DNA of 64,000 nt, taken from assembly GCA_047634015.1 (NCBI GenBank), contig JBLIDB010000001.1, positions 16,094 to 80,093 on the forward strand, read 5' to 3'. Below the pieces are notes generated by a model. That model did no database searches. It saw only the letters and a list, made by a program, of their open reading frames with translations, and was not told the origin of the DNA. This stretch comes from Saprospiraceae bacterium (GTDB lineage: Bacteria; Bacteroidota; Bacteroidia; Chitinophagales; Saprospiraceae). The translations under genes were made by a program, and so were the position numbers. Below are positions 12,979-28,459 of this stretch, piece after piece; position 1 is the first letter of the stretch; each line of letters begins with the position of its first letter.

Positions 12979-13677
12979 CTAACTAAAGGGTGATAACAAT
13001 CGGGATATCATCTCAATTCCAGATCTTAGATTTTGACCTTTTGCGGTTGTCTCAGCCGTATATCTTACATCAACAGGAATTTCACTTATTTTAGAATGTG
13101 TAATTTTCGCATGTTTTATAATTTCCATACAAAATTCGAAACCATCATAATTTAAGTTCAAGTCTTGAGCAAGAGAACCACTAATGGCCTTGAGACCTGA
13201 TTGGCTATCTGTGAGATACTTTCCAGTAAGGAGAAAGCTTACAATATTAGCAATACCATTGTAGATACGGCGAGAGGTAGGAATAGAATTTGAACTTATA
13301 AATCGACTACCGATTACAAGGTCAGCATTTATTTCTTCCATGTGCTTAATAAGCCTAGGAATATCTTCAGGATTATGTTGGAGGTCGGCATCTATGGTTA
13401 CTATGATTTGAGCATTTTTAGATGCTGCGAATGCAATACCGGTTTGGGTAGCTGCTCCTGCTCCAAGATTAATAACATGATCCAGGACGTAGGCTTCTTG
13501 GAATTGTTCGGCAATGTCTCTTGTCTTGTCTGTGCTTTGATCATTGACGACAACAACCTGATATAGTCCAAGTGTCAATATTTGGGTGATAAGATCATTT
13601 AGATAGTTGTCTTCATTCTTAGCAGGAATGACAATGTAGATGTCTTTTAGTGAGGTCTTGAATTCTATGTTTTTCAT
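12979..13677 (-). CDS. Soluble family 2 glycosyltransferase, DPM1/polyprenol-phosphate-sugar synthase-like
   Basis: IVIPAKNE, VVVNDQSTDKT and TIDADLQH (DxD) motifs. It is 232 aa with no TM segment and is the last gene of a three-gene operon. Confidence 0.75.
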   Translation of the reverse strand: MKNIEFKTSLKDIYIVIPAKNEDNYLNDLITQILTLGLYQVVVVNDQSTDKTRDIAEQFQEAYVLDHVINLGAGAATQTGIAFAASKNAQIIVTIDADLQHNPEDIPRLIKHMEEINADLVIGSRFISSNSIPTSRRIYNGIANIVSFLLTGKYLTDSQSGLKAISGSLAQDLNLNYDGFEFCMEIIKHAKITHSKISEIPVDVRYTAETTAKGQNLRSGIEMISRLLSPFS

Positions 13678-15087
13678 CTATAGAATTTCATAAATTGCAT
13701 AGCTACCAAAAGTCAAAATATTTTCGCCAAATACTTCCGATACTTTAGATTTGGTTCCATCATTTTGTTTTATTTCAATTACTCGATCTGTGGCAAGTAA
13801 TTGGACGCTTGGGTTTTTATAAATGGTATTTAGCAGTAATTGATACTTTTTCGTTAGAGATTTTTCAGGAGTCTTATCCAATGTATGGGTATAGAGATCA
13901 ATTAAGATATATTTGAAATTTGAAGCCTTAAGAGCCGCAATAATCTTCTCTTTTTCTTTCAAGGCATCTACAAGCCAAAAGAATTGGGGAAGTGTATTGT
14001 CTTGAAAAAGGCGCTCAGTGTTATTCTTTATATCAAAGGCAAAGAAGGTACCTATTTGATATATTAAAGCATTATTAGAATTTATCTTTTCAAGTGCATC
14101 ATTGATATTGCCATAAGACTTGCTTCGTGCTTCTTTAGCACTTATAAGAGATGTGGAATATTGGAAAGTATTATTATCCAAAATACCCTTACCTATGTTA
14201 GCAGTATTCTCTCCTGTTTGCATAGTATTGATATTGGAAATTCGTCCTACCCAACACATAGTTATCCATATTAATAAAAACAAAATAATTATGTTCTTAA
14301 TGGAACCAAAAGAAGGGTAGGCGTTGAATTTATCGTTACTACAAAAGTGTAGAATGCTAGTGAGACCTAAAGGGATTATTAAAAATCCGTACCAGATAAT
14401 TCCTGAACTAAGTGCCAACCATAGAAATGAAAATGGGATAAATACAGCAGCAACAAACTGACCCTTTTCTGAAAGCTTGATTCTATGAACGAGTAGCCAT
14501 AAACTACCTATGAATAGAAGGATTAGTATGGGATAAGTAAAATGATCTCGATTTCCAGAAATTTGGTTCCCGATTACATGTATAGGACGCGAAGCGTAAT
14601 ATGATATATTAAAAATTCCTGTGGTGATACTCTCAATTACACTCTTATCGGAATTAGCAATAAAGCTTTGCCACTTTGTGCCATGATTATTAACTTGACC
14701 ATGGAACTGTGTATATTGGAATGAATAACTAAGACAAAGACTTAAGAAGAGAAAAAACACAACGAGCGATGTGTAAAATAGCTTTCGATGCTTATAAACA
14801 AGACCAAGAAACACTAATGGCAATAGCATGAACAAGGCAAAGCCCAAATCTACATAACGTCCTTGTTGATTTGTATTAGAACTAATATCATAAGGCAGCG
14901 TAAGATATCTGAATAGTAAATCTTCATATCCGAAATAGCGTTGAATTTCATCTCTCTTATCATCACTTATGATCTTGTCCAATTCGATGACAAGCGGATC
15001 TTGCTTAGAATCTTCTTGACTATTAAGCGGGGAGATAGAACTAAATAGAACAACAATTAGTAGAATTAACCTTAACTCTAATCTCAT
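13678..15087 (-). CDS. Polytopic membrane protein with a C-terminal extracytoplasmic domain, function unknown
   Basis: Signal peptide, about 8 TM helices, then about 190 soluble residues. An ATGA overlap with the upstream gene suggests translational coupling, and there is a 0-nt gap to the GT2 gene. Confidence 0.55.
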   Translation of the reverse strand: MRLELRLILLIVVLFSSISPLNSQEDSKQDPLVIELDKIISDDKRDEIQRYFGYEDLLFRYLTLPYDISSNTNQQGRYVDLGFALFMLLPLVFLGLVYKHRKLFYTSLVVFFLFLSLCLSYSFQYTQFHGQVNNHGTKWQSFIANSDKSVIESITTGIFNISYYASRPIHVIGNQISGNRDHFTYPILILLFIGSLWLLVHRIKLSEKGQFVAAVFIPFSFLWLALSSGIIWYGFLIIPLGLTSILHFCSNDKFNAYPSFGSIKNIIILFLLIWITMCWVGRISNINTMQTGENTANIGKGILDNNTFQYSTSLISAKEARSKSYGNINDALEKINSNNALIYQIGTFFAFDIKNNTERLFQDNTLPQFFWLVDALKEKEKIIAALKASNFKYILIDLYTHTLDKTPEKSLTKKYQLLLNTIYKNPSVQLLATDRVIEIKQNDGTKSKVSEVFGENILTFGSYAIYEIL

Positions 15088-16727
15088 TGCTCATTCTTCT
15101 TTTGAGATTCTCTATAATTTGAGATTATAGTAGAAGCGTTGATCTTGGGAGAAGGCTTTTCACCTATCACAAGCTTCATAATAGAAAGGCTTTTTGTATA
15201 GGTATAATTTTTATACATCCAAGGAGAGAATGTAAGGGCCATAACCGCACCGCATAATATAAGTGGCTTAATACTAGCAATAAATTTCTCTTTGGATTGT
15301 ACAAAAATATATAAAAGGCCAGAAAGACCTAATGCAATACAAATACCGCCTGTAACATTGGGGCTTAAATGATATTCTCTTAATCCACTTAGATCGTCTA
15401 AGCGGGCTAAAAGGACAAGACCAAAACCTAAAGATGCTACCGAAAGCATTCCGATAATATCTTTATGGAAATTCCAGAGAGCAAGAAAAAGTGCATAAAC
15501 AAGAAATACACTTAGTACTTTAATTGAAAGTCCATACCCTAACAGAATTCCTATAATCACCACCAACTTAGTATCAAATGGCGTTTCTAATAAAGTGCTT
15601 TGAGAATTATTCTTTTTGTATTCAAATAACCACCACATGACCAAATTTAATGTAACCATTTGGAAAAATAATAGCGCGAGGTCTACTTTGAATTCTATCA
15701 TCCAATGATTTGTAACAGTAGGAGACACCATGAATAACATCACTACTAAGAGAGACATATTGGAAGAAACCTTTAGATGATGATGAGCAAACTCATATAT
15801 TGCGAAGAGACAAAGTATGCCTCCTAAGCTGGAGATAAACATTGTAACTTCTGGACTATCAAAAGCTATATATCCTGTAGACATTACAAGACTCCATGCA
15901 TATGGCGAAAAGCCACTTATCAATGCCCCCGCGTCTGAGATAAGATTGGCAATATTTACATAGTAGTTCCGAGCATCAAACCCCAAAGGAAATGGTGCTT
16001 GCGTGTAGAGATAATTCATCGTCAGATAAACGAGGATAAAAAATGCCAAAAATCCTCCCCAAAAATTGAAACCTTTAGGTTTGGTAATCGGTGACCATAG
16101 AACTCTTTTTACAAAACCAAGAGCTTCTTCATAGTTCAATAGAATGAAAAGTGCCATGATGCCGAGTAAGAGTACCTGGTTCAGTAGCGCAAAAGCTCCC
16201 AAAGCCATCATTATGAATGTATATGCTATAAAGCCAATAGCAATATCCAACAAGGCAAAAGTGAGGCTGGTTTCAGGTGATTCTATTAGTCTCTTTCTCA
16301 AAAACCTTCCAATGCTATAACAAGCCGTAATCAAGAAGAAAGCACTTCCAAGGGTAAAAAGAGCCATGCCCGCTAAATGGAGAAAGTGAGAAAAATCAAG
16401 CGGAGCCTTCCAATAATGATTAAAAGAAAGTGTTATCGCCCATATAATCCCAATCACAAGAAGCAGGACCATTATTCCGTTAACAATGTTAAATTTTAAT
16501 CGATTTAAGAAAAACAATCGATTGTAATACAAAGAGAGGAGGGATCCAATAACTGTAAAAAAGCCAAATAGCTTGAAATATCTGAAATAGCGAAACGAAG
16601 GGCCATATACAACTTGCTTGTTAATGTAATCGATGAATATAATACCCACCCAAAACAAAGCGAATATTAAAAATATCCAATCTTGTAGAGTAAACTTAGA
16701 AATGTATCCGCGTAGACGATCAATCAT
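15084..16727 (-). CDS. Large polytopic membrane protein, possible GT-C-fold glycosyltransferase
   Basis: About 13 predicted TM helices, with an early loop motif PFPLGFDARNYY (an acidic/aromatic loop as in GT-C enzymes). The track's TTG start at 16745 overlaps the -7 box, so I prefer the ATG at 16727. Confidence 0.5.
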   Translation of the reverse strand: MIDRLRGYISKFTLQDWIFLIFALFWVGIIFIDYINKQVVYGPSFRYFRYFKLFGFFTVIGSLLSLYYNRLFFLNRLKFNIVNGIMVLLLVIGIIWAITLSFNHYWKAPLDFSHFLHLAGMALFTLGSAFFLITACYSIGRFLRKRLIESPETSLTFALLDIAIGFIAYTFIMMALGAFALLNQVLLLGIMALFILLNYEEALGFVKRVLWSPITKPKGFNFWGGFLAFFILVYLTMNYLYTQAPFPLGFDARNYYVNIANLISDAGALISGFSPYAWSLVMSTGYIAFDSPEVTMFISSLGGILCLFAIYEFAHHHLKVSSNMSLLVVMLFMVSPTVTNHWMIEFKVDLALLFFQMVTLNLVMWWLFEYKKNNSQSTLLETPFDTKLVVIIGILLGYGLSIKVLSVFLVYALFLALWNFHKDIIGMLSVASLGFGLVLLARLDDLSGLREYHLSPNVTGGICIALGLSGLLYIFVQSKEKFIASIKPLILCGAVMALTFSPWMYKNYTYTKSLSIMKLVIGEKPSPKINASTIISNYRESQKKNEQ

Positions 16728-16742
16728 AATAAAATAGTAGAC

Positions 16743-16750
16743 CAAAGGTA
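16743..16750 (-). promoter_or_regulatory. Bacteroidota -7 promoter box (TACCTTTG on the minus strand) for the membrane-protein/GT2 operon
   Basis: Matches TAnnTTTG. It lies 15 nt upstream of the ATG at 16727. Confidence 0.5.
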
Positions 16751-16871: not shown

Positions 16872-17321
16872 GTGGGATTAGAGAAAGAGATAAAACAGAA
16901 AACACCATTCTCAAATGAAGGCAATAGAGCTTTGGTAAATATTCTATATTCTTCAGGTTGGCTAACGGAGAGGTTGAAATCTCACTTTAAGCCCTATGGA
17001 ATTACTCCGAAGCAATATAATATTCTTCGAATCTTAAATGGTGCTATGGATCCAATGTCCACTTCTCAGATCAGAGCGCGTATGCTTGATAAAATGTCAG
17101 ATGTTACGCGATTAATTGATAGGATGGTTTTAAAGCAATGGATCACAAAAAACGCAAGTAATGTAGATAGAAGGTTGATAGATGTTCGGATAACCTTAAA
17201 AGGGGAAAAGCTTTTAAAGGATATCGATCAGGTTAATCCACCGCTTGACAATATCATATCAAATCTTAATGAGATTGAATGCGCTCAACTTAACATTCTA
17301 TTAGATAAGTTGAGAGGTTGA
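16872..17321 (+). CDS. MarR-family transcriptional regulator
   Basis: 149 aa with a winged-helix core ITPKQYNILRIL...MSTSQIRARMLDKMSDVTRLIDRMVLKQWI...DRR. GTG start. Confidence 0.85.
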   Translation: MGLEKEIKQKTPFSNEGNRALVNILYSSGWLTERLKSHFKPYGITPKQYNILRILNGAMDPMSTSQIRARMLDKMSDVTRLIDRMVLKQWITKNASNVDRRLIDVRITLKGEKLLKDIDQVNPPLDNIISNLNEIECAQLNILLDKLRG

Positions 17322-18596
17322 TTAGACTTGACGCTTCAGAGATCTATGCCGATTTTGTGAAGTCTTCCAGAGAAAAATCATATTTAACATCAATGACGCG
17401 CAAAGGTATAGGCCAATAAAAGGGGTAACTAAGTGAGATGTGCTGCTCAATCCAAACCAATCTCCATAGCTAACAATTATATAGGTTCCTAATCCAAATT
17501 TTACGAATTCTGCGATTAGTGAAACAAAATCATTATCCATTAAGCTCGAATAGGCGAATATTGAGATGAAGAGGAATAAAACATATAGTATGATACTATA
17601 TGTGGTTAGTTCACCTATATGCGTTAGTAAGTGATATGTCATAAGATTAGTGATGATCAACTGTGCCCAAGACCAGGCTTCTAATCCAGAAGGTATATCG
17701 GGGTTATATTTTTGTTGAGAAAACGGGTCTTCGATAATGGTGATAGGATATTTTCTCTTAACATCTTCTGGTCGCCAACCAGTAGGCATGAACCATATGC
17801 GAGCCTTGTCCCAGAGGTCCTCAGCTCTCCAAGCGTCCTTAATAAGCTGCCATAGATGTTGGTAGTTGATCAATATCGGATTCCAAGTATGCACTGGTTT
17901 CTTTACTCCATAAACAGGCGGAATTTCGGGAGATTCTTCTTGGAAAGTGCCAAAGAGTTTATCCCAAATAATAAAAATCGCAGCGTAATTTTTATCAATG
18001 TACTCTGGATTTATGGCATGGTGGACTCTATGATGTGATGGGGTAACTAAGATGTATTCCAAAAACCCCATTCGATTTATAAGCCTCGTGTGATACCAGA
18101 ACTGGGCAAACAAGTGAAGTGGCGCTATAATCGCAATCACCTTTCCAGGGATTCCTACTATAGCCATAGGAATATATAAGAAGAAGTATACACCTACCAC
18201 GGCAGAAATACTTTGACGCAGTGCGCAGGCAAGATTGAATTCTTCACTGGAATGATGAACAATATGACGATTCCACATAAGGTTGATCTCATGATTGAAT
18301 CTATGTGACCAATACGAAGCGAAATCAATAAGGACTAATGCTACTATAAATACTAAAAATGTAGAAGGAATTTTAAATAAAGCCAAATGAGACTCCATCC
18401 ATCCATAACTAATAATTACTATACCAAGTCCAACGACTTCCTTCAGGGTATTGGTAAGTCCGGAACTCAGGCTGGATATAGTATCCATAGATGTCACAAT
18501 CTTTTGAGACATATAAAGACTCATTAGATACTCGATAATTATTAGAATTACAAAACCTGGTATGGCGTATGACAATACAGTTGCATATGCTTCCAT
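17322..18596 (-). CDS. Fatty acid hydroxylase / sterol desaturase superfamily membrane protein with a long hydrophobic C-terminal extension
   Basis: His boxes HRFNH, HIVHH and HHRVHH. It is 424 aa, and about 190 residues with further TM helices follow the catalytic domain. Confidence 0.8.
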   Translation of the reverse strand: MEAYATVLSYAIPGFVILIIIEYLMSLYMSQKIVTSMDTISSLSSGLTNTLKEVVGLGIVIISYGWMESHLALFKIPSTFLVFIVALVLIDFASYWSHRFNHEINLMWNRHIVHHSSEEFNLACALRQSISAVVGVYFFLYIPMAIVGIPGKVIAIIAPLHLFAQFWYHTRLINRMGFLEYILVTPSHHRVHHAINPEYIDKNYAAIFIIWDKLFGTFQEESPEIPPVYGVKKPVHTWNPILINYQHLWQLIKDAWRAEDLWDKARIWFMPTGWRPEDVKRKYPITIIEDPFSQQKYNPDIPSGLEAWSWAQLIITNLMTYHLLTHIGELTTYSIILYVLFLFISIFAYSSLMDNDFVSLIAEFVKFGLGTYIIVSYGDWFGLSSTSHLVTPFIGLYLCASLMLNMIFLWKTSQNRHRSLKRQV

Positions 18597-18702
18597 GAGT
18601 ATTTATTTTTTGACTAAGTTACTATTTCCTACGAATGATGGTGCTGTCTTTGAGAATCGATTGAATTGACGCGTATTAAGTAGGCCTCATTATCAATATT
18701 TC

Positions 18703-18710
18703 TATCTTTG
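18703..18710 (+). promoter_or_regulatory. Bacteroidota -7 promoter box (TATCTTTG) for the PIP-synthase-like gene
   Basis: Matches TAnnTTTG. Only 8 nt separate it from the ATG at 18719, which implies a leaderless or near-leaderless mRNA. Confidence 0.5.
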
Positions 18711-18718
18711 CAATAATT

Positions 18719-19399
18719 ATGGATTATAAGGAAGTCGGTCGGAGGGTTTTATATTTTTTGTTTGATCCACTGGTTCATATTATCAAAAAACTGGGCATAA
18801 CTCCCAATCACATTACCCTTGTGGGTTTGATCTTGAATATTTGGGCAGTATTACATCTTATTAACTATACGGATTGGGCCTTGGTGGCATACGGTGAAAA
18901 TTTAGTTGGATTTGGATTCATACTCGGGTTTGCGGGTTTAATGGATACCATAGACGGGAGATTGGCAAGATTGTATGATATGAAATCAACTTTTGGTGCA
19001 TTTTTCGACTCTGTAATCGATCGATATAGTGAATTCATTATGTTTTTAGGGATACTACTCTACTTTATTCATTTTAATCATATGACAGGATTAGTTTTCG
19101 GGTTTATGGCATTGATGGGTTCGATAATGGTTAGTTATAATCGATCTAGAGCGGAAGCATTAGGTGTTGATTGTAGTGTTGGGTTTATGCAGCGGCCAGA
19201 ACGAATTGTATTCATAGGGCTTTGGACAATAATTTGGGGTGTCCTGTATATGACAGTACCGAGTACTTTTGACTATGAAATCTACGGTGTTGATATCTTT
19301 GCCATTGGTTTTATTTTTCTGGCGATCTCTACTAACATTACAGCCATGCGTCGGATGTTACATTCTCAAAAATTATTGCTTGAACAATCGGGTAATTAA
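18719..19399 (+). CDS. CDP-alcohol phosphatidyltransferase, phosphatidylinositol-phosphate synthase-like
   Basis: Signature DTIDGRLARLYDMKSTFGAFFDSVIDR (DGxxAR...G...D...D). It is 226 aa with about 6 TM helices and is linked to the MIPS and PgpA genes. Confidence 0.75.
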   Translation: MDYKEVGRRVLYFLFDPLVHIIKKLGITPNHITLVGLILNIWAVLHLINYTDWALVAYGENLVGFGFILGFAGLMDTIDGRLARLYDMKSTFGAFFDSVIDRYSEFIMFLGILLYFIHFNHMTGLVFGFMALMGSIMVSYNRSRAEALGVDCSVGFMQRPERIVFIGLWTIIWGVLYMTVPSTFDYEIYGVDIFAIGFIFLAISTNITAMRRMLHSQKLLLEQSGN

Positions 19400-19443
19400 A
19401 TCTATTTCTATCAAACCATTGAAAAACATCGATAGTCATCGCG

Positions 19444-20358
19444 ATGGGTCATTTTAAACATAGATTGGTTGTTGCTGGCATTTTTGCCATAGCTTATGGG
19501 GTTCTGATGGGGCTTTTTGTTGGGTGGAGATCTGATCATACCTTTATGTTCGGCCTTGTGCTTGTTATGATGTTAGCACATAAGGAGTCCTATAAGATTG
19601 TATTGGCCTTATCTGGATTTGCCCTTTTCTGGATTATATACGATGCTTTAAGAATTGCGCCTAATTATAGATTTAATGATGTTCATATTAAGGAACCATA
19701 TGAGATAGAGTTGGCTCTTTTTGGTATCATAGACGCTGGAAAATTAGTAGTCCCATGTGAATGGTTTCTAACTCGAATAAATGATACTGCTTCACTTATT
19801 GCTGGATTCTCATACATTCTCTGGATGCCAGCTCCAATGGCATATGCCTTATATCTGTATTGGAAAGATTGGTCTATCTTATTTGATTTTTCCTATGGTT
19901 TTTTACTGACATGCTTTATCGGTTTTTTCTTTTATTACGCATATCCAGCGGCGCCTCCTTGGTATTTTTTAAATCATGGAGTAGGTACAGATTTTAGTAT
20001 TCCCGGCAGCGAAGGCCTTCTTTCAGAATTTGACAGAATTCTTGGAGTGACCATATTTAATGGTATTTATGCGAAAGGAGGCAATGTATTCTGCGCCATT
20101 CCTTCATTACATTCCGCTTATCCGATGCTTTGCCTATTGACTGCTTTACGACGAAAGACATACACGCTGGCTTTTGTCTTCTTAATATGGGGTTTTGGTA
20201 CATGGTTCGCCGCGGTATATTCTCAACATCATTATATTATAGATGTGTTAATGGGTATATTTTGTGCCATTTTGGGGCACTTTCTCATTGTTAAAATCCA
20301 GAAATTCTCATGGATATCTTCCTTTAAGAAAATATTCTTGAAGGAGCTGTATCTATGA
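19444..20358 (+). CDS. PAP2-superfamily membrane protein, inositol-phosphorylceramide synthase-like
   Basis: C-terminal motifs PSLHSAYP and SQHHYIIDVLMG match the AUR1/IPC-synthase-type PAP2 signature. It is a 304-aa polytopic protein. Confidence 0.65.
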   Translation: MGHFKHRLVVAGIFAIAYGVLMGLFVGWRSDHTFMFGLVLVMMLAHKESYKIVLALSGFALFWIIYDALRIAPNYRFNDVHIKEPYEIELALFGIIDAGKLVVPCEWFLTRINDTASLIAGFSYILWMPAPMAYALYLYWKDWSILFDFSYGFLLTCFIGFFFYYAYPAAPPWYFLNHGVGTDFSIPGSEGLLSEFDRILGVTIFNGIYAKGGNVFCAIPSLHSAYPMLCLLTALRRKTYTLAFVFLIWGFGTWFAAVYSQHHYIIDVLMGIFCAILGHFLIVKIQKFSWISSFKKIFLKELYL

Positions 20359-20489
20359 TATAGTATTACATATTATAATTTCTACCATAGATGCCGCGCA
20401 ATTGGTTTACTCGAAAACGTGAATTTTATTGATCAACATGGCAGGTTCGAGTGTTTTTAACTCTTTCTTTTCTGTTAGATTCAAAATCC

Positions 20490-20497
20490 TACCTTTG
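20490..20497 (+). promoter_or_regulatory. Bacteroidota -7 promoter box (TACCTTTG) for the MIPS operon
   Basis: Matches TAnnTTTG. There are 38 nt between the box and the ATG at 20536. Confidence 0.5.
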
Positions 20498-20535
20498 CGG
20501 TCCTTTTACGAAAAAATAAATAAAACCTCTATTCT

Positions 20536-21804
20536 ATGAGTAATAATTCAAAAGCAACTAAACCGACGGGTACCCTCGGTATTCTTACCCCTGGAATGGG
20601 TGCAGTTGCCACTACATTCATTGCAGGGTGTATAGCTATTAAGAAAGGTATGGCTAAGCCAATCGGTTCACTTACACAAATGGGCCATATTACCGCCGCG
20701 GATGGTAGTCGACGTCGCATAGATGAGATTGTACCACTCCAAGCATTGGGCGATGTAATCTTTGGAGGATGGGATGTACATCCGGATAGCGTATATGATG
20801 CAGCGGTTAATGCAAAAGTTATAGACCGCTATATGATCGAGCAGTTAAAACCTGAACTGGAAGCCATTAAGCCAATGACTGCTTGCTTTGATCAGCGATA
20901 TGTCAAACGACTCCATGGAACGAATGTGAAGACTCAGACCAATAAGATGGAATTGGCAGAAGCGCTGATGGATGATATTAGAAGATTTAAAGAGGAGAAC
21001 AATTGTGATCGATTGGTGATGGTTTGGTGCGGAAGTACAGAAATGTATATTGAAGAATCTGATGTGCATACTACTCTTGCTAAATTAGAAGAAGGACTTA
21101 GAAATAATGACGAGAATATCCCTCCGAGCATGATATATGTTTATGCTGCGGTCAAGATGGGTATTCCATATGCTAATGGAGCGCCTAACTTAAGTTGTGA
21201 TGTGCCAGCTATCTTAGAATTGGCCGCTCAGACACAGACTCCTATAGCAGGGAAAGATTTCAAAACAGGGCAGACGTTTATGAAGACGATCCTCGCTCCT
21301 GGTCTTAAGTCAAGACATCTGGGTATAGAAGGCTGGTTCAGTACTAATATATTGGGTAATAGAGATGGAGAGGTATTGGATGCGCCTGAGAACTTCAAAA
21401 CTAAAGAGGTTTCTAAACTGGGAGTTCTTGAGCAAATATTAGAGCCCGATTTATATCCCGAACTTTATGGTGATATGTATCACAAAGTTCGAATCAATTA
21501 TTATCCACCGAGAGGGGATGCGAAAGAGGGTTGGGATAATATCGATATAAGAGGATGGATGGATTATCCGATGCAAATAAAAGTAGATTTTTTATGTAGA
21601 GATAGCATACTTGCCGCACCATTAGTATTGGATCTTGCGATCTTGTTAGATCTTGCCAAAAGATCTGGTGAGAGCGGTATCCAGCATTGGTTAAGCTACT
21701 ATCTAAAGTCCCCGCAGACCTTACCTGGAGCTAAACCTCAGCACGATTTATTCAAGCAGCATGATGATTTGAATAAAAAACTGTTTGAATTAGCGGGAGA
21801 ATAA
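20536..21804 (+). CDS. ino1: myo-Inositol-1-phosphate (inositol-3-phosphate) synthase
   Basis: 422 aa with N-terminal nucleotide-binding stretch LGILTPGMGAVATTFIAG. Core motifs PYANGAPN, FKTGQT and WFSTNILGNRDG resemble the short archaeal/bacterial MIPS type. Confidence 0.85.
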   Translation: MSNNSKATKPTGTLGILTPGMGAVATTFIAGCIAIKKGMAKPIGSLTQMGHITAADGSRRRIDEIVPLQALGDVIFGGWDVHPDSVYDAAVNAKVIDRYMIEQLKPELEAIKPMTACFDQRYVKRLHGTNVKTQTNKMELAEALMDDIRRFKEENNCDRLVMVWCGSTEMYIEESDVHTTLAKLEEGLRNNDENIPPSMIYVYAAVKMGIPYANGAPNLSCDVPAILELAAQTQTPIAGKDFKTGQTFMKTILAPGLKSRHLGIEGWFSTNILGNRDGEVLDAPENFKTKEVSKLGVLEQILEPDLYPELYGDMYHKVRINYYPPRGDAKEGWDNIDIRGWMDYPMQIKVDFLCRDSILAAPLVLDLAILLDLAKRSGESGIQHWLSYYLKSPQTLPGAKPQHDLFKQHDDLNKKLFELAGE

Positions 21805-21813
21805 AATAATTCG

Positions 21814-22281
21814 ATGAAGTGGTTAGCAACTTTCATTTCATCCGCAGGTGGAGCAGGATATGTGCCTTTTGCACCCGGTACGTGGGGTACACTTGTAGGC
21901 TGTATTATCCTCTATGTTTTATCCTACTTCTTCGTTGGGTTCAATTCAGGATGGCAATTGGTGGGCCTTACAATAGTTCTTAGTGTTTTCAGTCATCAGC
22001 TAATAGCTTTTTTGCCTGATACATGGGTTCATGACGATGGTAGAATTGTAATAGACGAAGTTTTAGGACTTTGGGTAACCTTGTTCTTCCTACCAGTTAC
22101 TCCTACCACTTTGGTGCTTGGATTTATCTTTTTTCGCATTTTTGATATTTGGAAACCGCTTGGGATAAGATATTTCGATCAGCTGAAATCAAACTGGGGA
22201 GTAATTGTCGATGATATAGTGGCAGGTGTCTATGCGAATATTGCGTTAAGAGGAGTAATACTAATTTTGTTATGGATATGA
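21814..22281 (+). CDS. pgpA: Phosphatidylglycerophosphatase A family protein (candidate PIP phosphatase)
   Basis: 155 aa with GGAGYVPFAPGTWGT, DDGRIVIDEVLG and RIFDIWKP motifs typical of PgpA. Confidence 0.8.
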   Translation: MKWLATFISSAGGAGYVPFAPGTWGTLVGCIILYVLSYFFVGFNSGWQLVGLTIVLSVFSHQLIAFLPDTWVHDDGRIVIDEVLGLWVTLFFLPVTPTTLVLGFIFFRIFDIWKPLGIRYFDQLKSNWGVIVDDIVAGVYANIALRGVILILLWI

Positions 22282-22694
22282 CACTGAAGCAAGGCACTCA
22301 GAATGTACCTATTGTAAAATCATTTTTTAGGTATAATGCCTCTGCGATGACAGCAAGCGCATTTGATTTTGGTATTACGCTATTTTGCAAGGAGGTATTA
22401 GGAGTTCACTATTTGGTGTCCGTATTTTTAGGTGCGCTGAGCGGAGGGGTTGTCGCATTTACACTTGGGCGAAACTGGACTTATCTTAGCAAAGACGAAA
22501 AACCGCAAACTCAAGGGGCTAAATATTTGATTATTTGGGTAGGTAGCATATTGTTAAATACATTTGGGGTTTATTTCATAGCAGAAGTCCTTGGCTTTGG
22601 TGAGGAGTATTATATTTATTGGAAAGTAATAACAGCCACTTTGGTTGGAGCCTTTTACAATTTTCCTATGCAGCGATACTTTGTTTTTAAATGA
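22272..22694 (+). CDS. GtrA-family membrane protein (polyprenol-phosphate-sugar translocation family)
   Basis: 140 aa with 4 TM helices. The N-terminal FxxFxxxSxxxxxxDF-like segment and the C-terminus QRYFVFK are typical of GtrA. It overlaps pgpA by 10 nt. Confidence 0.7.
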   Translation: MDMTLKQGTQNVPIVKSFFRYNASAMTASAFDFGITLFCKEVLGVHYLVSVFLGALSGGVVAFTLGRNWTYLSKDEKPQTQGAKYLIIWVGSILLNTFGVYFIAEVLGFGEEYYIYWKVITATLVGAFYNFPMQRYFVFK

Positions 22695-23575
22695 TGTCGG
22701 ATAAAAAAAAGCTTCTGTTTATTATAAACCCCTTTGCTGGATATCGAAGCAAGAATAGGATGCCTAAGCTTATCAATGAGGTCATCTCCAAAGAGATGTT
22801 TGACTATGATATTGAAGAAACTCAATACGCAGGGCATGCTTCTGAGATAGCTGCAGAAGGAGTAACATCCCAGTACAATGCTGTTGTAGCTATTGGTGGT
22901 GATGGGACACTCAATGAAGTGGCTTCATCTCTTATATATACGGATGTTGCATTAGGGATAGTACCAGGAGGTTCTGGTAATGGGATGTCTACACATTTGG
23001 GTATCGGTCGAAGTGCTCGTAAGGCGCTGAGAATTCTTGGAGATTACAATGTCCGCAGAATGGATTCTGTTAAATTGAATGATAGATTCTATCTTAATAT
23101 GGCAGGAATTGGAATAGATGGCCTTGTAGCATATAAGACAAAACTCAATGCAAAAAGAGGTTTTTCGAATTATCTGAAAGGCGCCCTCGTAGAAAGTATC
23201 AAATACAAGAATCAGAAATACACTATTGAGGTAGATGGCAAGGAATATACAGGGAAGTTCCTTTCAGTCAATGTAGCCAATGGATCTATGTTCGGCTATA
23301 ATTTCACTATAGCTGCCGATGCTGACACTTCGGATGGATTATTGGATACACTCATGATCCGTGATGCCCACAAGATTGATTATTTCGGTAATGCTTGGAG
23401 ATTTTGGGCTGGAAGAATTCATAAAAGCAAGTTGGCAAAAACAGCGAAAACATCCTCTTTGAAACTCACTACTTATGAGGATAGTTATATGCATATTGAT
23501 GGCGAAGGTTATCCTTGTCCTCCTGGAGAGTTTGAATTTACGGTTATGAAGGATTCCCTTAATGTGATCTGCTAA
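22691..23575 (+). CDS. DAGK-catalytic-domain lipid kinase (YegS/BmrU/sphingosine-kinase fold)
   Basis: LFIINPFAG, GGDGTLNE and PGGSGNG motifs. 294 aa. It has an ATGA overlap with the GtrA gene. Confidence 0.8.
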   Translation: MMSDKKKLLFIINPFAGYRSKNRMPKLINEVISKEMFDYDIEETQYAGHASEIAAEGVTSQYNAVVAIGGDGTLNEVASSLIYTDVALGIVPGGSGNGMSTHLGIGRSARKALRILGDYNVRRMDSVKLNDRFYLNMAGIGIDGLVAYKTKLNAKRGFSNYLKGALVESIKYKNQKYTIEVDGKEYTGKFLSVNVANGSMFGYNFTIAADADTSDGLLDTLMIRDAHKIDYFGNAWRFWAGRIHKSKLAKTAKTSSLKLTTYEDSYMHIDGEGYPCPPGEFEFTVMKDSLNVIC

Positions 23576-23638
23576 TTTATCTTTGGCTTGTTAACAACTC
23601 ATTTAGAGTAAATTTCACATAATACATCTACAGCTTTC

Positions 23639-23646
23639 TACCTTTG
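23639..23646 (+). promoter_or_regulatory. Bacteroidota -7 promoter box (TACCTTTG) for the DUF5916 gene
   Basis: Matches TAnnTTTG. There are 7 nt between the box and the ATG at 23654. Confidence 0.5.
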
Positions 23647-23653
23647 TGGGCTT

Positions 23654-25870
23654 ATGAGAATTATATTATTCTTTTTTACAATGTGTTCGGTCATTTGGAC
23701 TTATGCACAGGCTGGATTAGAGCTTTCCGAAGTTCAGGTTAAGTCTATCGAATCGGGTCGTGTTACAGTTGATGGAGAGCTGAATGAAGCTTTCTGGATG
23801 GAAATTACTCCGGCCACGGACTTTCAGCAATATTTTCCTACAGATTCTATAAAGGCCCAAGCAAGGACAGAGATTTATCTGGCGTCAGATGATGAGCATC
23901 TATACGTAGGATTAAAGTGTGTTTCTGCAGGCAATAAATGGATCGTTCCTTCTCTTAAACGGGATTACAGGGCAGGAGGTAATGACAATGTAACTTTAGT
24001 TTTTGATTCATTTGATGATCAGACTAATGCAATATTCTTTGGCATCAATCCTGAGGGCGTTATCAGGGAGGGGCTTATTAGCAATGGTGGAAATAGGAGA
24101 GAGGATTTTTCTGAATCATGGGATAATAAATGGGCTGGAACTTCCAAGAAATACGATGGGTATTATACTGCCGAGTTAGCAATTCCATTTAGTACGCTGA
24201 GATATAATGCCGATAATGATAGATGGGGATTAATGTCCTACAGATTCGATACGCAAATCAATGAGTGGAGTACTTGGCCGGGAACACCTCAGAATCAAGT
24301 TTTATTCAACTTAGCCCATATGGGTGAGATAAACTGGGAGGTCGCTCCACCTAAAGGAAAAAAACAAGTAAGTATTATACCTTTTATTTCCGCAGGAGTA
24401 AGCAGGGATTTCGAAGAAGGTACACCTTCAGATAAGTTCATAGAAGTTGGGGGAGATGCTAAAATTGCGCTGACTTCAGGGTTGAATCTAGATCTAACAA
24501 TAAATCCAGATTTCTCTCAAGTGGAAGTAGATCAGCAGATAACTAATCTGGATAGATTCGAATTATTCTTTCCAGAAAGACGCCAGTTCTTTTTAGAAAA
24601 TGCTGATTTGTTTGGTCAGTTTGGATTTCAAAGTATCAATCCATTTTTCTCACGAAGGATCGGCGTTGCGAATGATGTAGAAACAGATAATACGGTTCAA
24701 AATCGAATCTATGGTGGCCTTAGGCTAAGTGGGAAGGTCAATAAAAAGCTGAGAGTGGGGTTGCTGAACATGCATACAGAGTCCAACCATGAGCAAGGGA
24801 TTCCCTCTACAAATTATGCAGTTCTTGCCCTCCAACAAAAAGTTCTTAGTAGATCTAACATCAGCTTTATCGCTGTCAATAAAAACGCTGCCTTAGATAA
24901 TCTTGAGGGTAGTGATTTAAGCAAATTCAATCGAGTTTTTGGTGTAGACTTTAATTATGCTAACAATGATAACACATGGTCAGGTAAGACTTTCGCACAT
25001 ACAGCTCTTACTCAAAATCAAGGTGCAAAATTGAGTCATGGTACAAACTTAAATTATAATAAAAGAGAATTTGGACTTTCTTGGGAGCATGCATATGTGC
25101 AGGATGGTTATAACGCAGAAGTGGGCTTTATAAGAAGGACAAATTATATCAGGATCGCGCCTTCTGGAGAGTTAAGATTCTATCCGGCAGGAAAGAAGCT
25201 GAATACGTTCAACCTTGGTACGGAGACTGAAATGATTTGGAAGACAGGATTTGGGAAGACCGATCATGAGATAAGAATAGGAAGTGAAATTGGATTAACA
25301 AATAGCACACGTCTGGGCGTTTTTTTTAACCATAATTATGTCTACCTGTTTGATGATTTTGATCCAACGGGTACAGACTCAGCTCCCCTAATGGCAGATA
25401 GTGAATACAATTACTGGAATATCGCCGGATTCTGGAGTTCGGATTCCAGAAAGAAGTTGTCCTTTCAATTACGACCATATATAGGTCAGTACTTTAATGG
25501 GAATAGATATGGAACCCGTGGTTCTATATCATTGCGTTATGAGCCAAGAGGATCAATAAGGTTGGATTATTCTGTGAACTATTTTGATATGCCTCATTTA
25601 GATGAGGTGAAAAGTACACTTCTAATAGGTCCAAGAATTGATTACACTTTCTCAAGGTCAGTATTTTCGACTTTGTTTGTTCAGTACAATAGTCAATCTC
25701 AGAATACTAATGTGAATGCACGACTACAATGGCGATTTGCCCCCGTTTCTGACTTTTTCTTAGTCTATACGGACAATTATTTTAGCGGATTAGATCCTTC
25801 GGATCGATTCGCATTAAATGTTAGAAACCGCTCAATCGTAGCAAAGCTTACCTATTGGTTCAATACATAA
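23654..25870 (+). CDS. Secreted CBM9-like / DUF5916 family protein (probable outer-membrane beta-barrel)
   Basis: Signal peptide. The motif NPDFSQVEVDQQITNLDRFELFFPERRQFFLE is one I recognise from DUF5916 proteins. The C-terminus is aromatic (TYWFNT). Confidence 0.65.
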   Translation: MRIILFFFTMCSVIWTYAQAGLELSEVQVKSIESGRVTVDGELNEAFWMEITPATDFQQYFPTDSIKAQARTEIYLASDDEHLYVGLKCVSAGNKWIVPSLKRDYRAGGNDNVTLVFDSFDDQTNAIFFGINPEGVIREGLISNGGNRREDFSESWDNKWAGTSKKYDGYYTAELAIPFSTLRYNADNDRWGLMSYRFDTQINEWSTWPGTPQNQVLFNLAHMGEINWEVAPPKGKKQVSIIPFISAGVSRDFEEGTPSDKFIEVGGDAKIALTSGLNLDLTINPDFSQVEVDQQITNLDRFELFFPERRQFFLENADLFGQFGFQSINPFFSRRIGVANDVETDNTVQNRIYGGLRLSGKVNKKLRVGLLNMHTESNHEQGIPSTNYAVLALQQKVLSRSNISFIAVNKNAALDNLEGSDLSKFNRVFGVDFNYANNDNTWSGKTFAHTALTQNQGAKLSHGTNLNYNKREFGLSWEHAYVQDGYNAEVGFIRRTNYIRIAPSGELRFYPAGKKLNTFNLGTETEMIWKTGFGKTDHEIRIGSEIGLTNSTRLGVFFNHNYVYLFDDFDPTGTDSAPLMADSEYNYWNIAGFWSSDSRKKLSFQLRPYIGQYFNGNRYGTRGSISLRYEPRGSIRLDYSVNYFDMPHLDEVKSTLLIGPRIDYTFSRSVFSTLFVQYNSQSQNTNVNARLQWRFAPVSDFFLVYTDNYFSGLDPSDRFALNVRNRSIVAKLTYWFNT

Positions 25871-26011
25871 ATCAAAAGCTTCATGCGTTTGTCTATAATT
25901 GCCACGCATTTGTATACAATTCAGAACATTGATTTTGAATTTGATCAACATTACGGGGTGTTTCGGGTTTATACCTTCTATTCACTTTATAATACAAATC
26001 AACTACATCTT

Positions 26012-28459
26012 ATGAAAGGAATATTTACGCTCTTACTATTTTTATTTATAGTAATCGGCATGCAAGCGCAGTTCGGCGGATTCGGTGGTGGAGGAGGAAC
26101 CAAAATAAAAGGTAAAATCTCTGGAACTCTCATTGATTCTCTTACTTCAGAACCTATTAGTTACGCCTCATTATCGATGAAGAAATCTGGTAAAGAGAAG
26201 ATATTAAATGGAGCCCTCAGTGAGGATAATGGGGAATTTAGTTTTACTGATGTTGCCCCAGGTATTTATGAAATTGAAATATCATTTATAGGATATACAA
26301 CTAAAATATTAACAGAAGTAGAAACCTCAAAAAAGAACCCAGACAATAAAGTTGGAAAGATCTTTATGGTGACTACTGATTACCTACTCGATGAAATCGA
26401 AATAACTGAAAAACGGGCCCTTATAGAAAGTAAAGTCGATAAGATCGTATTTAATGCGGAAGATGATTCATCAATAGCTGGAGGAGATGCGACGGATGTC
26501 TTGCGAAAGGTTCCGTTGCTGTCTGTAGATCTCGAGGGAAATGTTTCTTTGCGGGGATCTCAGAATGTGAGAATTCTTGTGAACGGAAAGCCTTCTGGAA
26601 TGTTCTCAAGTAATGTGGCTGATGCATTAAAAATGTTTCCTGCTGATCAAATTAAAAAGGTTGAAGTAATCACTTCTCCCGGGGCTAAATATGATGGAGA
26701 AGGCGGAGCTGGAATTATAAATATTATTACAAAAAAGGCCAATGTAGAAGGCGTTGCGGGTACCATTAATGCTTCTGCAGGAACAAGACAAAATAATTCG
26801 AATTTGAATTTGAATATAGGTAAAGGCAGGTTTGGGTTTTCTACCAATGCTTCAGTCTATTATTCCAATCCTGTTAATGCTGAGAACTCATTTTCTCGGA
26901 TTGCAGATAGTGGCGAGGAGCTCTACAGTTTTGAAGGGATTACGAAAAGTTCTAGATTGGGTTTCAGCGGATCGGCAAGTGCGTTTTATGATATTAATGC
27001 ATATAATGCCATTAATTCGGGATTGACGCTGCGTGGATATTCATCTGATCGGGATGGACCCAGTGTAGGTAATTTTGGTGATTTTTCATTTGATAGAACT
27101 ACTGTTGGTGGAAGCCTTTTTAGTGGTTACGATTGGACCTTGGATTATACACGAAAGTTTGAAGATAATGATGTCAAGGAATTAACATTTGCAACTCAGG
27201 TTTCGGGCAATACACAGAATCAAGATAATATTGTTCGCGATGTACTCCTTACTGGAGAAGAACTGCGAAATGATATGATCGATAATGATGGAGATAATCT
27301 TGAAGTAACAGGTCAGGTGGATTATGTACATCCTGTAGGAAAATCCAAATTAGAAATGGGAGCAAAGACGGTTATTAGAACAATAAAAAGTACTTCTGAT
27401 TTTGTTCCAGATAACAATCGTTCTAATGTCTTTGACTATGACCAAGATGTCTATTCTGGATATGTTTCTTATAATTTTCTTGTTGGCAAGCTAAATTTTA
27501 TTACAGGTCTAAGATATGAATACACCGGGATCCAAGGGGATGGGGAAGAGGTTTTACAGAGGTTCTCGAATAGCTACAATAGTTGGTTGCCTAATATCGC
27601 TGTAAGTCTTCCATTTAAGAATTTTAGGAATCTGAAATTGGCTTATAGTAAGAGAATTCAGCGGCCAAGCTTGTTTTATATTAATCCATTTAGGAATACT
27701 TCAGATTTTGCCAATATATCGGAAGGTAATCCAGAGTTGAATCCAGAATTGACGAATCAATTAGAAATGTCCTATAATACAAATGTAGCAGGGTTCACAA
27801 TATTCGGTTCGGTATATTATAAACGTACTACTGATCTAATAGAGAGGGTTTCATTCACTGAATCAGTACCGAACCAGAATGAAGAAGTCCAGATTAATAG
27901 CTTTTCTAATGTAGGAACCAACAATTCAATAGGGGTAAATATATTTACTTCTAAGAGTGTTGGGAATCTTACTGTACGTGGAGGTGGCGATGTTTATACT
28001 TATAATGCTACTGGAATTGTCAATGGCCAAGAATTATCGGCAGATGAGTTGAGTTATCGATTATTCCTAAATGGAGATTTTAAAATATCAGGAACATTAA
28101 AAGCGGATTTCTTTGGCTTTTTTCAAGCTCCGCGGTTTACACTTCAAGGACAGAATCCGAGTTTTTCGATTTTTGGATTTGGACTACGTAAGGAATTTGG
28201 AAAGGCGAGCTTAGGAATTAGAATAATTGAACCATTCAGTGCTAATAAAGCCTTCAATTCTGATATCCAAGGAGATGGATTCCGTTCCGTCTCCTCTTTT
28301 GTATTGCCATTCAGATCTTTTGGATTGAACTTTAGTTACAAATTTGGAAAGGTAGATTTCAAATCCCGTAAGAGTAAGATCAAGAATACTGATCAAAAAG
28401 GTGGAGATGGCGGTCAAGGCGGTCAAGGCGGCCAAAGTGGTGGCGGTGGAGTCGGGTAA
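26012..28459 (+). CDS. TonB-dependent-receptor-like outer membrane beta-barrel protein with an N-terminal CarboxypepD_reg domain
   Basis: Signal peptide MKGIFTLLLFLFIVIGMQAQ. CarboxypepD_reg-like GTLIDSLTSEPISYASL...GIYEIEISFIGY, a plug-like region and alternating beta strands. I prefer the ATG at 26012 over 25883 because the 43-aa extension is not signal-like. Confidence 0.75.
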   Translation: MKGIFTLLLFLFIVIGMQAQFGGFGGGGGTKIKGKISGTLIDSLTSEPISYASLSMKKSGKEKILNGALSEDNGEFSFTDVAPGIYEIEISFIGYTTKILTEVETSKKNPDNKVGKIFMVTTDYLLDEIEITEKRALIESKVDKIVFNAEDDSSIAGGDATDVLRKVPLLSVDLEGNVSLRGSQNVRILVNGKPSGMFSSNVADALKMFPADQIKKVEVITSPGAKYDGEGGAGIINIITKKANVEGVAGTINASAGTRQNNSNLNLNIGKGRFGFSTNASVYYSNPVNAENSFSRIADSGEELYSFEGITKSSRLGFSGSASAFYDINAYNAINSGLTLRGYSSDRDGPSVGNFGDFSFDRTTVGGSLFSGYDWTLDYTRKFEDNDVKELTFATQVSGNTQNQDNIVRDVLLTGEELRNDMIDNDGDNLEVTGQVDYVHPVGKSKLEMGAKTVIRTIKSTSDFVPDNNRSNVFDYDQDVYSGYVSYNFLVGKLNFITGLRYEYTGIQGDGEEVLQRFSNSYNSWLPNIAVSLPFKNFRNLKLAYSKRIQRPSLFYINPFRNTSDFANISEGNPELNPELTNQLEMSYNTNVAGFTIFGSVYYKRTTDLIERVSFTESVPNQNEEVQINSFSNVGTNNSIGVNIFTSKSVGNLTVRGGGDVYTYNATGIVNGQELSADELSYRLFLNGDFKISGTLKADFFGFFQAPRFTLQGQNPSFSIFGFGLRKEFGKASLGIRIIEPFSANKAFNSDIQGDGFRSVSSFVLPFRSFGLNFSYKFGKVDFKSRKSKIKNTDQKGGDGGQGGQGGQSGGGGVG
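28409..28435 (+). repeat. In-frame 9-bp x3 tandem repeat (GGCGGTCAA GGCGGTCAA GGCGGCCAA) encoding GGQGGQGGQ
   Basis: Seen directly in the sequence. It lies in the Gly-rich C-terminal tail of the OMP. Confidence 0.9.

Follow-up and report, generated by a model that had tools for sequence, protein, structure and literature searches.

GtrA-family and lipid kinase genes at the end of a sphingolipid/inositol-lipid operon of a Saprospiraceae bacterium

What roles might a small GtrA-family membrane protein and a soluble lipid kinase have at the end of an operon for inositol lipids? This question is raised by a stretch of 64,000 nt from a Saprospiraceae bacterium (assembly GCA_047634015.1, contig JBLIDB010000001.1, positions 16,094-80,093 of the forward strand), referred to here as the window, in which both genes follow those for myo-inositol-1-phosphate synthase (MIPS) and a PgpA-family phosphatase. 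An earlier annotation made from the letters of the DNA (the sequence-only reading) described the two genes as extra to the minimal route through phosphatidylinositol (PI) to phosphoinositol-dihydroceramide (PI-dihydroceramide, PI-DHC), which ends with PI-DHC (IPC) synthase, and as tightly coupled to the operon; both statements were borne out. The region forms the end of a sphingolipid/inositol-lipid operon and holds two independent add-ons. The observation is real and both genes are of known kinds: the GtrA gene is a published member of such clusters, and the kinase comes from a known family and has been relocated.

The order of the four genes and the overlaps of 10 and 4 nt given by the sequence-only reading were confirmed. 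The GtrA start codon (ATG 22272) overlaps the PgpA stop codon (TGA 22279-22281) by 10 nt; an alternative in-frame ATG at 22278 would give the classical 4 nt ATGA overlap with PgpA. The kinase start codon (ATG 22691) overlaps the GtrA stop codon (TGA 22692-22694) by 4 nt, also as ATGA, with a second ATG at 22694. The GtrA-stop/kinase-start junction was found in all ten same-genus genomes and in farther relatives down to approximately 43% kinase identity; since it recurs across relatives, the coupling of the two genes is more than chance. The PgpA-GtrA-kinase trio was present in the same ten genomes and in a genome of one other genus (G011). MIPS is not always part of this coupling: several same-genus genomes have it on one contig and the IPC synthase, PgpA, GtrA and kinase genes on another, which leaves PgpA-GtrA-kinase, rather than MIPS-PgpA, as the invariant block.

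Conservation of the neighbourhood, by which the sequence-only reading was to be judged, was found for GtrA, which stands beside PgpA (usually as MIPS-PgpA) in every full cluster examined and in Bacteroides thetaiotaomicron, and was not found for the kinase beyond a Saprospiraceae subclade and one Dysgonomonadaceae metagenome-assembled genome (MAG; L092). PgpA and GtrA were direct neighbours in the window, in 10/10 same-genus genomes, in G011, in the metagenome contigs L032, L034 and L150, in L092 and in five genomes that represent further families within the order or class (G103, G304, G233, G296 and G018), so that the adjacency was kept in every full inositol-lipid cluster examined, in several families. 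The inositol-lipid cluster of B. thetaiotaomicron comprises BT_1522 to BT_1526, in which BT_1524, a membrane protein that bears a Gtr-A motif and was left as 'hypothetical', lies between BT_1525 (PgpA) and BT_1523 (phosphatidylinositol phosphate synthase; PIP synthase, PIPS) (Heaver et al., 2022; PMC9246714). The window protein shares with BT_1524 its character as a small GtrA-motif integral membrane protein encoded directly after a PgpA-type PIP phosphatase in a cluster with MIPS, PIPS and IPC synthase, which is the core arrangement of the BT_1522-BT_1526 type. The next gene differs, being PIPS in B. thetaiotaomicron and the kinase in the window, and the correspondence between the two proteins is one of position and family, not of sequence alignment. 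Its place beside PgpA in all full clusters examined and in B. thetaiotaomicron makes GtrA a known core gene, without novelty.

Residues 24-139 of the GtrA protein were aligned to positions 5-117 of the PF04138 (GtrA_DPMS_TM) profile at 47.3 bits (48 bits in the genome-wide search; gathering cut-off 26.1 bits), and the profile search identified it as the sole GtrA-family gene of the genome. A crude hydropathy scan gave four hydrophobic segments (approximately 25-42, 43-66, 82-108 and 113-132) and a charged loop at 64-81. In an alignment of 15 sequences Asp32, Gly54, Gly58 and Trp69 were conserved and Arg67, Gln81 and Asn130 nearly so, with Lys or Arg at position 84. The essential residues of Listeria GtcA are Arg95 in the third transmembrane (TM) segment and Asn132 in the fourth (PMC7389260), with which Lys/Arg84 and Asn130 are consistent and to which they may correspond. 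The window protein resembles the flippase-type proteins (Shigella phage GtrA; Listeria GtcA, PMC7389260) in its PF04138 domain, its length of approximately 140 residues, its four hydrophobic segments and, possibly, the basic residue conserved where segment 3 begins and the Asn in segment 4; unlike those systems, it has no adjoining GtrB-type family 2 glycosyltransferase (GT2) or GT-C partner.

Two side observations concern the same family. GtrA proteins that are followed by a kinase carry approximately 17 additional residues at the N-terminus, in which a (N/K)VP..(S)F.R pattern is conserved (window 22272-22330; alignment columns 1-22), and this extension is absent from the GtrA proteins of kinase-less clusters. 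Most same-genus genomes also contain a second GtrA-like gene elsewhere, matching the profile of the cluster GtrA with E values of 1e-31 to 1e-37 (for example G001:C72:16731-17102, G003:C1:64277-64642 and G004:C29:83080-83445).

A link of GtrA to polyprenol-phosphate sugars, as suggested by the sequence-only reading, found no conserved partner genes. The conserved neighbours of GtrA are inositol-lipid enzymes, and the lipid handled may therefore not be a polyprenyl-phosphate sugar. GtrA may handle a lipid-phosphate-cyclitol head group (PI or PI-DHC), for example by moving such a lipid within the inner membrane or from one side of it to the other. Its phospho-cyclitol group could here be likened to the phospho-hexose of undecaprenyl-phosphate-glucose, and the lipid moved would feed an outward-facing IPC synthase of the PAP2 type or a route of export to the outer membrane. 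The active sites of PAP2 enzymes face outward. A BT_1524 knockout was like the wild type by thin-layer chromatography and had no lipid phenotype (Heaver et al., 2022; PMC9246714). A translocation role would fit this lack of a compositional phenotype, and movement of PI or PI-DHC across the inner membrane would explain the unchanged total lipids after deletion. On the other side, the knockout still makes PI-DHC, so GtrA is dispensable for synthesis, and the flipping role is purely inferential. We regard it as doubtful, though worth stating, that BT_1524-type proteins are the first GtrA-family members to act on a non-polyprenyl lipid, moving PI or PI-DHC across the inner membrane. If the appended kinase also accepted diacylglycerol (DAG), it would close a DAG carrier cycle inside one operon.

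The kinase matched TIGR00147 at 124.5 bits (cut-off 118.65) as well as both PF00781 and PF19279 (YegS_C). The motifs Gly69-Gly70-Asp71-Gly72 and, towards the C-terminus, Asp270-Gly271 were invariant in the alignment; no TM segment was found (top 19-residue hydropathy 1.16), which indicates a soluble protein, and the predicted structure had a pLDDT of 89.4. The two domains, the GGDG motif, the C-terminal Asp, the lack of a TM segment and the fold are those of the YegS/Rv2252/BmrU soluble lipid kinases. A link of Rv2252 to PIM synthesis is given no weight in the assignment below. DgkB, BmrU and YegS were matched over the full length in sequence and fold, while SphK1 gave an equal fold match and a sequence match to the N-terminal domain only. 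By sequence, the closest solved relatives are the bacterial DgkB and BmrU (E 3e-19 with the single sequence and 1e-39 with a profile, full length). The closest solved structure, that of Staphylococcus aureus DgkB (PDB entries 2QV7 and 2QVL; sequence E 3e-19, Foldseek TM 0.80-0.82), is also of a soluble protein, and its GGDG and C-terminal DGE motifs align with those of the window kinase at an overall identity of 20-21%. The ATP-loop motif is GSGNG in the window kinase versus GT(V/C)ND in DgkB and BmrU; GSGN is presumably the sphingosine-kinase form of this loop. The kinase is the sole DAGK_cat protein of the genome, which also carries a DgkA-type gene (PF01219, 108.7 bits).

A scan of species genomes returned hundreds of relatives of the kinase at 30-42% identity across Bacteroidota. 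A tree of 113 sequences followed taxonomy, and each of five other genomes checked contained one strong member and a far weaker paralogue. This congruence and the pattern of one main copy mark the window kinase as the vertically inherited form of a kinase present across Bacteroidota rather than an extra paralogue. As a side observation, many Bacteroidales members carry a charged, probably helical C-terminal tail of approximately 50 residues or more (P0111, P0113, P0116, P0117, P0118, P0120 and G343:C1:610421-611296), which is absent from the window kinase and its Saprospiraceae relatives.

The family occupies several genomic settings. In 15 loci of the Bacteroides/Prevotella type the kinase gene divergently adjoins spt, the gene for serine palmitoyltransferase (SPT); the spt of L080, the only one of these 15 that was scored, is bona fide (NF047600, 717.8 bits; cut-off 640 bits). 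In 20 loci (L039:10915-11268 and 19 others) a SUI1/YciH-like gene directly follows the kinase. They belong to Sphingobacteriaceae, Hymenobacteraceae, Flavobacteriales and Bacteroidales and to a single Saprospiraceae MAG (L043), and the SUI1-adjacent site is probably where the kinase lay ancestrally. In 12 loci, of which one is from Desulfosediminicola, the kinase lies directly beside, and mostly directly downstream of, an LtaS-like membrane protein of the Sulfatase family (600-690 residues) with weak matches to lipoteichoic acid synthase and phosphoglycerol transferase models. Four of the five LtaS-type genomes checked were without a bona fide SPT, and the pairing looks like a recycling module of transferase and DAG kinase. 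A kinase within an inositol cluster was found in the Saprospiraceae subclade and L092 only; the other five full inositol clusters had none within the approximately 5-10 kb fetched on each side. Homologues of IPC synthase were rare, occurring in 7 of 301 sampled Bacteroidota genomes.

Within the window's own clade the kinase is found next to ceramide genes. In L151 it is the fourth gene of a run spt-GNAT-epimerase-kinase, with no inositol genes or IPC synthase nearby, and in L150 it closes the run IPC synthase-spt-GNAT-epimerase-MIPS-PgpA-GtrA-kinase; the spt genes of the two loci scored 679.6 and 677.6 bits. The genome of the window has a bona fide spt (704.8 bits) followed by a GNAT-like gene on contig C14. 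A single main copy, a tree that follows taxonomy and synteny with ceramide genes are the marks of the cerK/dhSphK1 group, and the window kinase shows them all, its own spt being on another contig.

The relative named cerK is BT_0871 of B. thetaiotaomicron, which adjoins spt (BT_0870) and is described, in a 2026 preprint (10.64898/2026.08.10.744002), as making ceramide-1-phosphate, a lipid reported as the ligand of host APOL9 (APOL9a/2). The window kinase shares with BT_0871 its membership of a single-copy Bacteroidota family with DAGK_cat and YegS_C domains, spt-adjacent in Bacteroides and Prevotella loci. It differs from the Bacteroides member in sequence (approximately 36-38% identity to the B. 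xylanisolvens protein) and in lacking the long C-terminal tail of many Bacteroidales forms, and from BT_0871 in being linked to an inositol module with spt elsewhere. PG1348 (dhSphK1) of Porphyromonas gingivalis, the sole such gene there, phosphorylated NBD-dihydrosphingosine in lysates and, when expressed in Escherichia coli, NBD-dihydrosphingosine but not NBD-sphingosine; its deletion raised the level of phosphoglycerol dihydroceramide (PG-DHC), the mutant still made dihydrosphingosine 1-phosphate (dhS1P), and the substrates assayed did not include DAG or ceramide (PMC9045371). The window kinase has in common with PG1348 the two-domain DgkB/SphK fold, the catalytic Asp in GGDG and its standing as the sole gene of its kind in a sphingolipid-making member of the Bacteroidota, whereas the reported substrate of PG1348 is the free base dihydrosphingosine. 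The ceramide kinase CpgB of Caulobacter (PMC10331486) belongs to the wider CERK/SphK/DAGK family and also serves the synthesis of an anionic sphingolipid head group; it comes from another phylum and another operon (cpgABC), and it is likened to the window kinase by family description, not by sequence.

Together, the cerK assignment of BT_0871, the activity of PG1348 and the spt-operon synteny inside the window's clade lead us to favour, with moderate confidence, a dihydroceramide or sphingoid 1-kinase. By family and synteny, the gene would be the single copy, in the window's lineage, of the Bacteroidota family that contains BT_0871 and presumably PG1348. The enzyme would phosphorylate the 1-hydroxyl of dihydroceramide, possibly also sphinganine and possibly also DAG, to give a phosphorylated sphingolipid parallel to PI-DHC. 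Its position at the end of the inositol operon would follow from the joining, in this lineage, of a ceramide module (spt, GNAT-like acyltransferase, epimerase-family reductase and kinase) and an inositol module (MIPS, PgpA and GtrA) in one operon that was later rearranged. The sequence-only reading had named sphingolipids and DAG as possible substrates, and both remain realistic. Its statement that none of the roles could be decided from sequence was too pessimistic, as the ceramide/sphingoid kinase family of BT_0871 and PG1348 is indicated by both orthology and synteny. Phosphorylation of a PI or inositol head group, which it had also listed, was rejected, with no support from neighbourhood or orthology. 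YegS, for which phosphatidylglycerol kinase activity is reported, is an analogy for that idea.

Several points weigh against the assignment to ceramide. Near-equal matches to DgkB, BmrU, SphK1 and YegS in the fold search of the PDB (TMq 0.72-0.83) do not separate the substrates. Orthology to BT_0871 is drawn from synteny in other Bacteroides genomes and that to PG1348 by inference; the cerK name comes from a single preprint, which cites another paper for it, and the activity reported for PG1348 is on the free sphingoid base and not on ceramide (PMC9045371). Family members are also present where a bona fide CFB-type SPT is missing, namely in approximately ten same-order relatives, a complete Bacteroidales chromosome and Desulfosediminicola. 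These genomes and the 12 LtaS-adjacent loci indicate that the family is not limited to sphingolipid substrates, and DAG is accordingly a live alternative. The kinase would then be a DgkB-like DAG kinase, perhaps with dual specificity for DAG and ceramide, that recycles the DAG freed when IPC synthase converts PI and dihydroceramide to PI-DHC: DAG would be phosphorylated to phosphatidate and return through CDP-DAG to PIP synthase, much as DAG may be seen as a recycled carrier between LtaS and DgkB in Staphylococcus. The presence of the DAG-releasing IPC synthase in the same cluster, the nearest solved relatives (DgkB and BmrU) and the LtaS-like neighbours, enzymes of that type also being DAG-releasing, speak for this scheme, as do the lack of a bona fide SPT in four of the five LtaS-type genomes, the presence of family members in SPT-less relatives of the same order and the independent entry of the kinase into inositol clusters on two occasions (Saprospiraceae and the Dysgonomonadaceae MAG). 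We nevertheless consider this main rival rather unlikely: a DgkA-type gene is already at hand in the genome, the family members that are characterized or named are sphingolipid kinases, the L151 kinase follows spt, GNAT and epimerase genes away from any inositol gene or IPC synthase, and in five full inositol clusters that include an IPC synthase no kinase was found over the approximately 5-10 kb fetched on each side. An enzyme acting on both ceramide and DAG would reconcile the two readings. A kinase for dihydrosphingosine (sphinganine) like dhSphK1, draining or buffering the free base and so the supply of dihydroceramide and PI-DHC, is a less probable candidate. PG1348, of the same fold and probably of the same family, has this activity and affects PG-DHC (PMC9045371), but the P. 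gingivalis mutant retains dhS1P, the Bacteroides gene is described in the preprint as a ceramide-1-phosphate enzyme, and in L151 and L150 the kinase comes after the acyltransferase and reductase genes, that is, at a post-ceramide position.

It was also considered whether GtrA and the kinase form a unit, in which GtrA would dock the kinase or present its lipid, by analogy with the docking of DgkB by GdpS in S. aureus, or whether GtrA glycosylates the inositol lipid together with the GT2 and polytopic proteins encoded upstream; either is very improbable in our view. The stop/start overlap of the two genes persists throughout the clade, the pair stays intact where PgpA is separated (L036) or undetected (L038), and the N-terminal extension is confined to kinase-coupled GtrA proteins. 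Against a unit, most GtrA clusters are without a kinase and most kinases without a GtrA beside them; the L151 kinase has no GtrA, and the order in L092 is kinase-PgpA-GtrA. Fusions of GtrA with PgpA, the kinase or GT2 were not found among the longer GtrA-containing proteins searched, which is weak evidence. As the two genes mostly occur apart and no fusions were found, they appear to be separate modules that the history of the operon brought together. For glycosylation, the stretch 6-9 kb upstream holds, on the opposite strand, a GT2 without a TM segment (12979-13677) together with two polytopic ORFs, and GtrA is the only member of its family in the genome. The genus retains this operon, though apart from the inositol cluster: in most same-genus genomes the polytopic gene has its homologues on other contigs, and such homologues are present in genomes without IPC synthase too. 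A GtrB-like GT2 and a polytopic transferase conserved beside GtrA, the other two components of a Gtr system, were not found across the relatives, and Gtr-type glycosylation of the inositol lipid was rejected as the two loci are not conserved together. The upstream operon itself (window 12979-16745, minus strand) encodes a GT2 of 232 residues and two polytopic proteins of 469 and 553 residues unmatched in Pfam, and is divergent from a MarR gene at 16872-17321.

The features of the operon and the loci of related proteins are listed in Table 1. The PIPS ORF scored 213 bits with NF052561 (PIPSynBT1523), which is under the equivalog cut-off of 350, and the IPC synthase ORF 263.6 bits with NF052609 (PhinosDhcerSyn), under the cut-off of 480; the motifs PSLH and SQHHYIID were seen in the translation of the latter. 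The role of the PgpA counterpart BT_1525 as PIP phosphatase is from Heaver et al. (2022; PMC9246714).

Table 1. Features of the inositol-lipid operon in the window and loci of associated proteins in relatives.
Feature	Position	Strand	Evidence
PIP synthase-like CDP-alcohol phosphatidyltransferase (BT_1523-like)	18719..19399	+	PF01066 51.4 bits
Phosphoinositol-dihydroceramide (IPC) synthase-like PAP2_3 protein (BT_1522-like)	19444..20358	+	PF14378 66.3 bits
TACCTTTG box, Bacteroidota -7 type (TAnnTTTG)	20490..20497	+	sequence reading; ~40 nt 5' of MIPS start
Myo-inositol-1-phosphate synthase (MIPS)	20536..21804	+	PF07994 310 bits, PF01658 110.8 bits
PgpA-family phosphatase, counterpart of BT_1525 PIP phosphatase	21814..22281	+	PF04608 130.9 bits
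GtrA-family small membrane protein, 140 aa	22272..22694	+	PF04138 47.3 bits
DgkB/YegS/SphK-fold soluble lipid kinase, 294 aa	22691..23575	+	PF00781 101 bits + PF19279 66.3 bits
Second TACCTTTG box	23639..23646	+	sequence reading; 7 nt ahead of DUF5916 start (ATG 23654)
DUF4833	L135:11456-12745	-	
DUF4833	L138:10451-10987	-	
DUF4833	L150:1-266		
LtaS-like neighbours of the kinase	L093:8118-9995 (representative); L041, L060, L062, L065, L073, L075, L082, L084, L100, L109		

The consensus of the -7 box of Bacteroides promoters is TAnnTTTG. The first TACCTTTG box is a candidate promoter for the MIPS-PgpA-GtrA-kinase unit, and the second suggests a separate transcription start downstream of the kinase. 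With boxes 5' of MIPS and 5' of the next gene, the kinase looks like the last gene of this unit. A scan of 18400-24000 for sigma-70 promoters and terminators gave counts equal to those of shuffled sequences, the model being uninformative for Bacteroidota. Head-to-head with the PIPS gene lies a gene for a FA_hydroxylase-family protein of 424 residues (17322-18596, minus strand), and shorter FA_hydroxylase genes (206 residues) are found inside related clusters between PIPS and IPC synthase, which suggests a sphingolipid or acyl hydroxylase of the inositol-lipid pathway. Downstream of the operon (23654-28459, plus strand) DUF5916/CBM9-like and OMP_b-brl_3/CarboxypepD_reg proteins are encoded. A CarboxypepD_reg protein (a BT_1527 homologue) near inositol-lipid clusters was reported by Heaver et al. 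(2022; PMC9246714), and a conserved outer-membrane partner of this type is possible.

In related genomes a long co-directional supercluster was observed (L135:9472-19585, L134, L133 and L138). The typical order in G103, G304, G233, G296 and G018 is spt, GNAT-like gene, epimerase-family reductase, MIPS, PgpA, GtrA, CarboxypepD_reg/DUF5686, PIPS (with DUF4833), fatty-acid hydroxylase and IPC synthase. The GNAT-like protein of the supercluster (373 residues) is a candidate ceramide synthase, and the CarboxypepD_reg+DUF5686 protein, encoded between GtrA and PIPS, has approximately 850 residues. In one genome the PIP synthase carries DUF4833 as a C-terminal fusion, and in others a separate adjoining gene encodes this domain, so that DUF4833 is probably another component of the inositol-lipid pathway; the PIPS of the window (226 residues) is without it. 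In G018 the reductase gene is separated from that of MIPS by a gene like those for sphingolipid delta-4 desaturases (FA_desaturase + Lipid_DES; L138:17069-18136, minus strand). Desaturated sphingoid bases are, to our knowledge, unusual in bacteria.

The sphingolipids and inositol lipids of Bacteroidota shape host-microbe interactions. Current knowledge is not overturned by this locus; the annotation of two genes is refined. The genes for ceramide, for inositol and for the kinase can share one operon in Saprospiraceae-like bacteria of the environment, which offers a compact transferable set for reconstitution. Two matters deserve to be followed up. Among the non-enzymatic members of these clusters the GtrA-like gene is kept most faithfully and is thus a clear target for work on the movement or presentation of inositol lipids, and the kinase family, linked variously to spt, to inositol genes and, in spt-less genomes, to LtaS-like transferases, poses the question of its range between ceramide and DAG.

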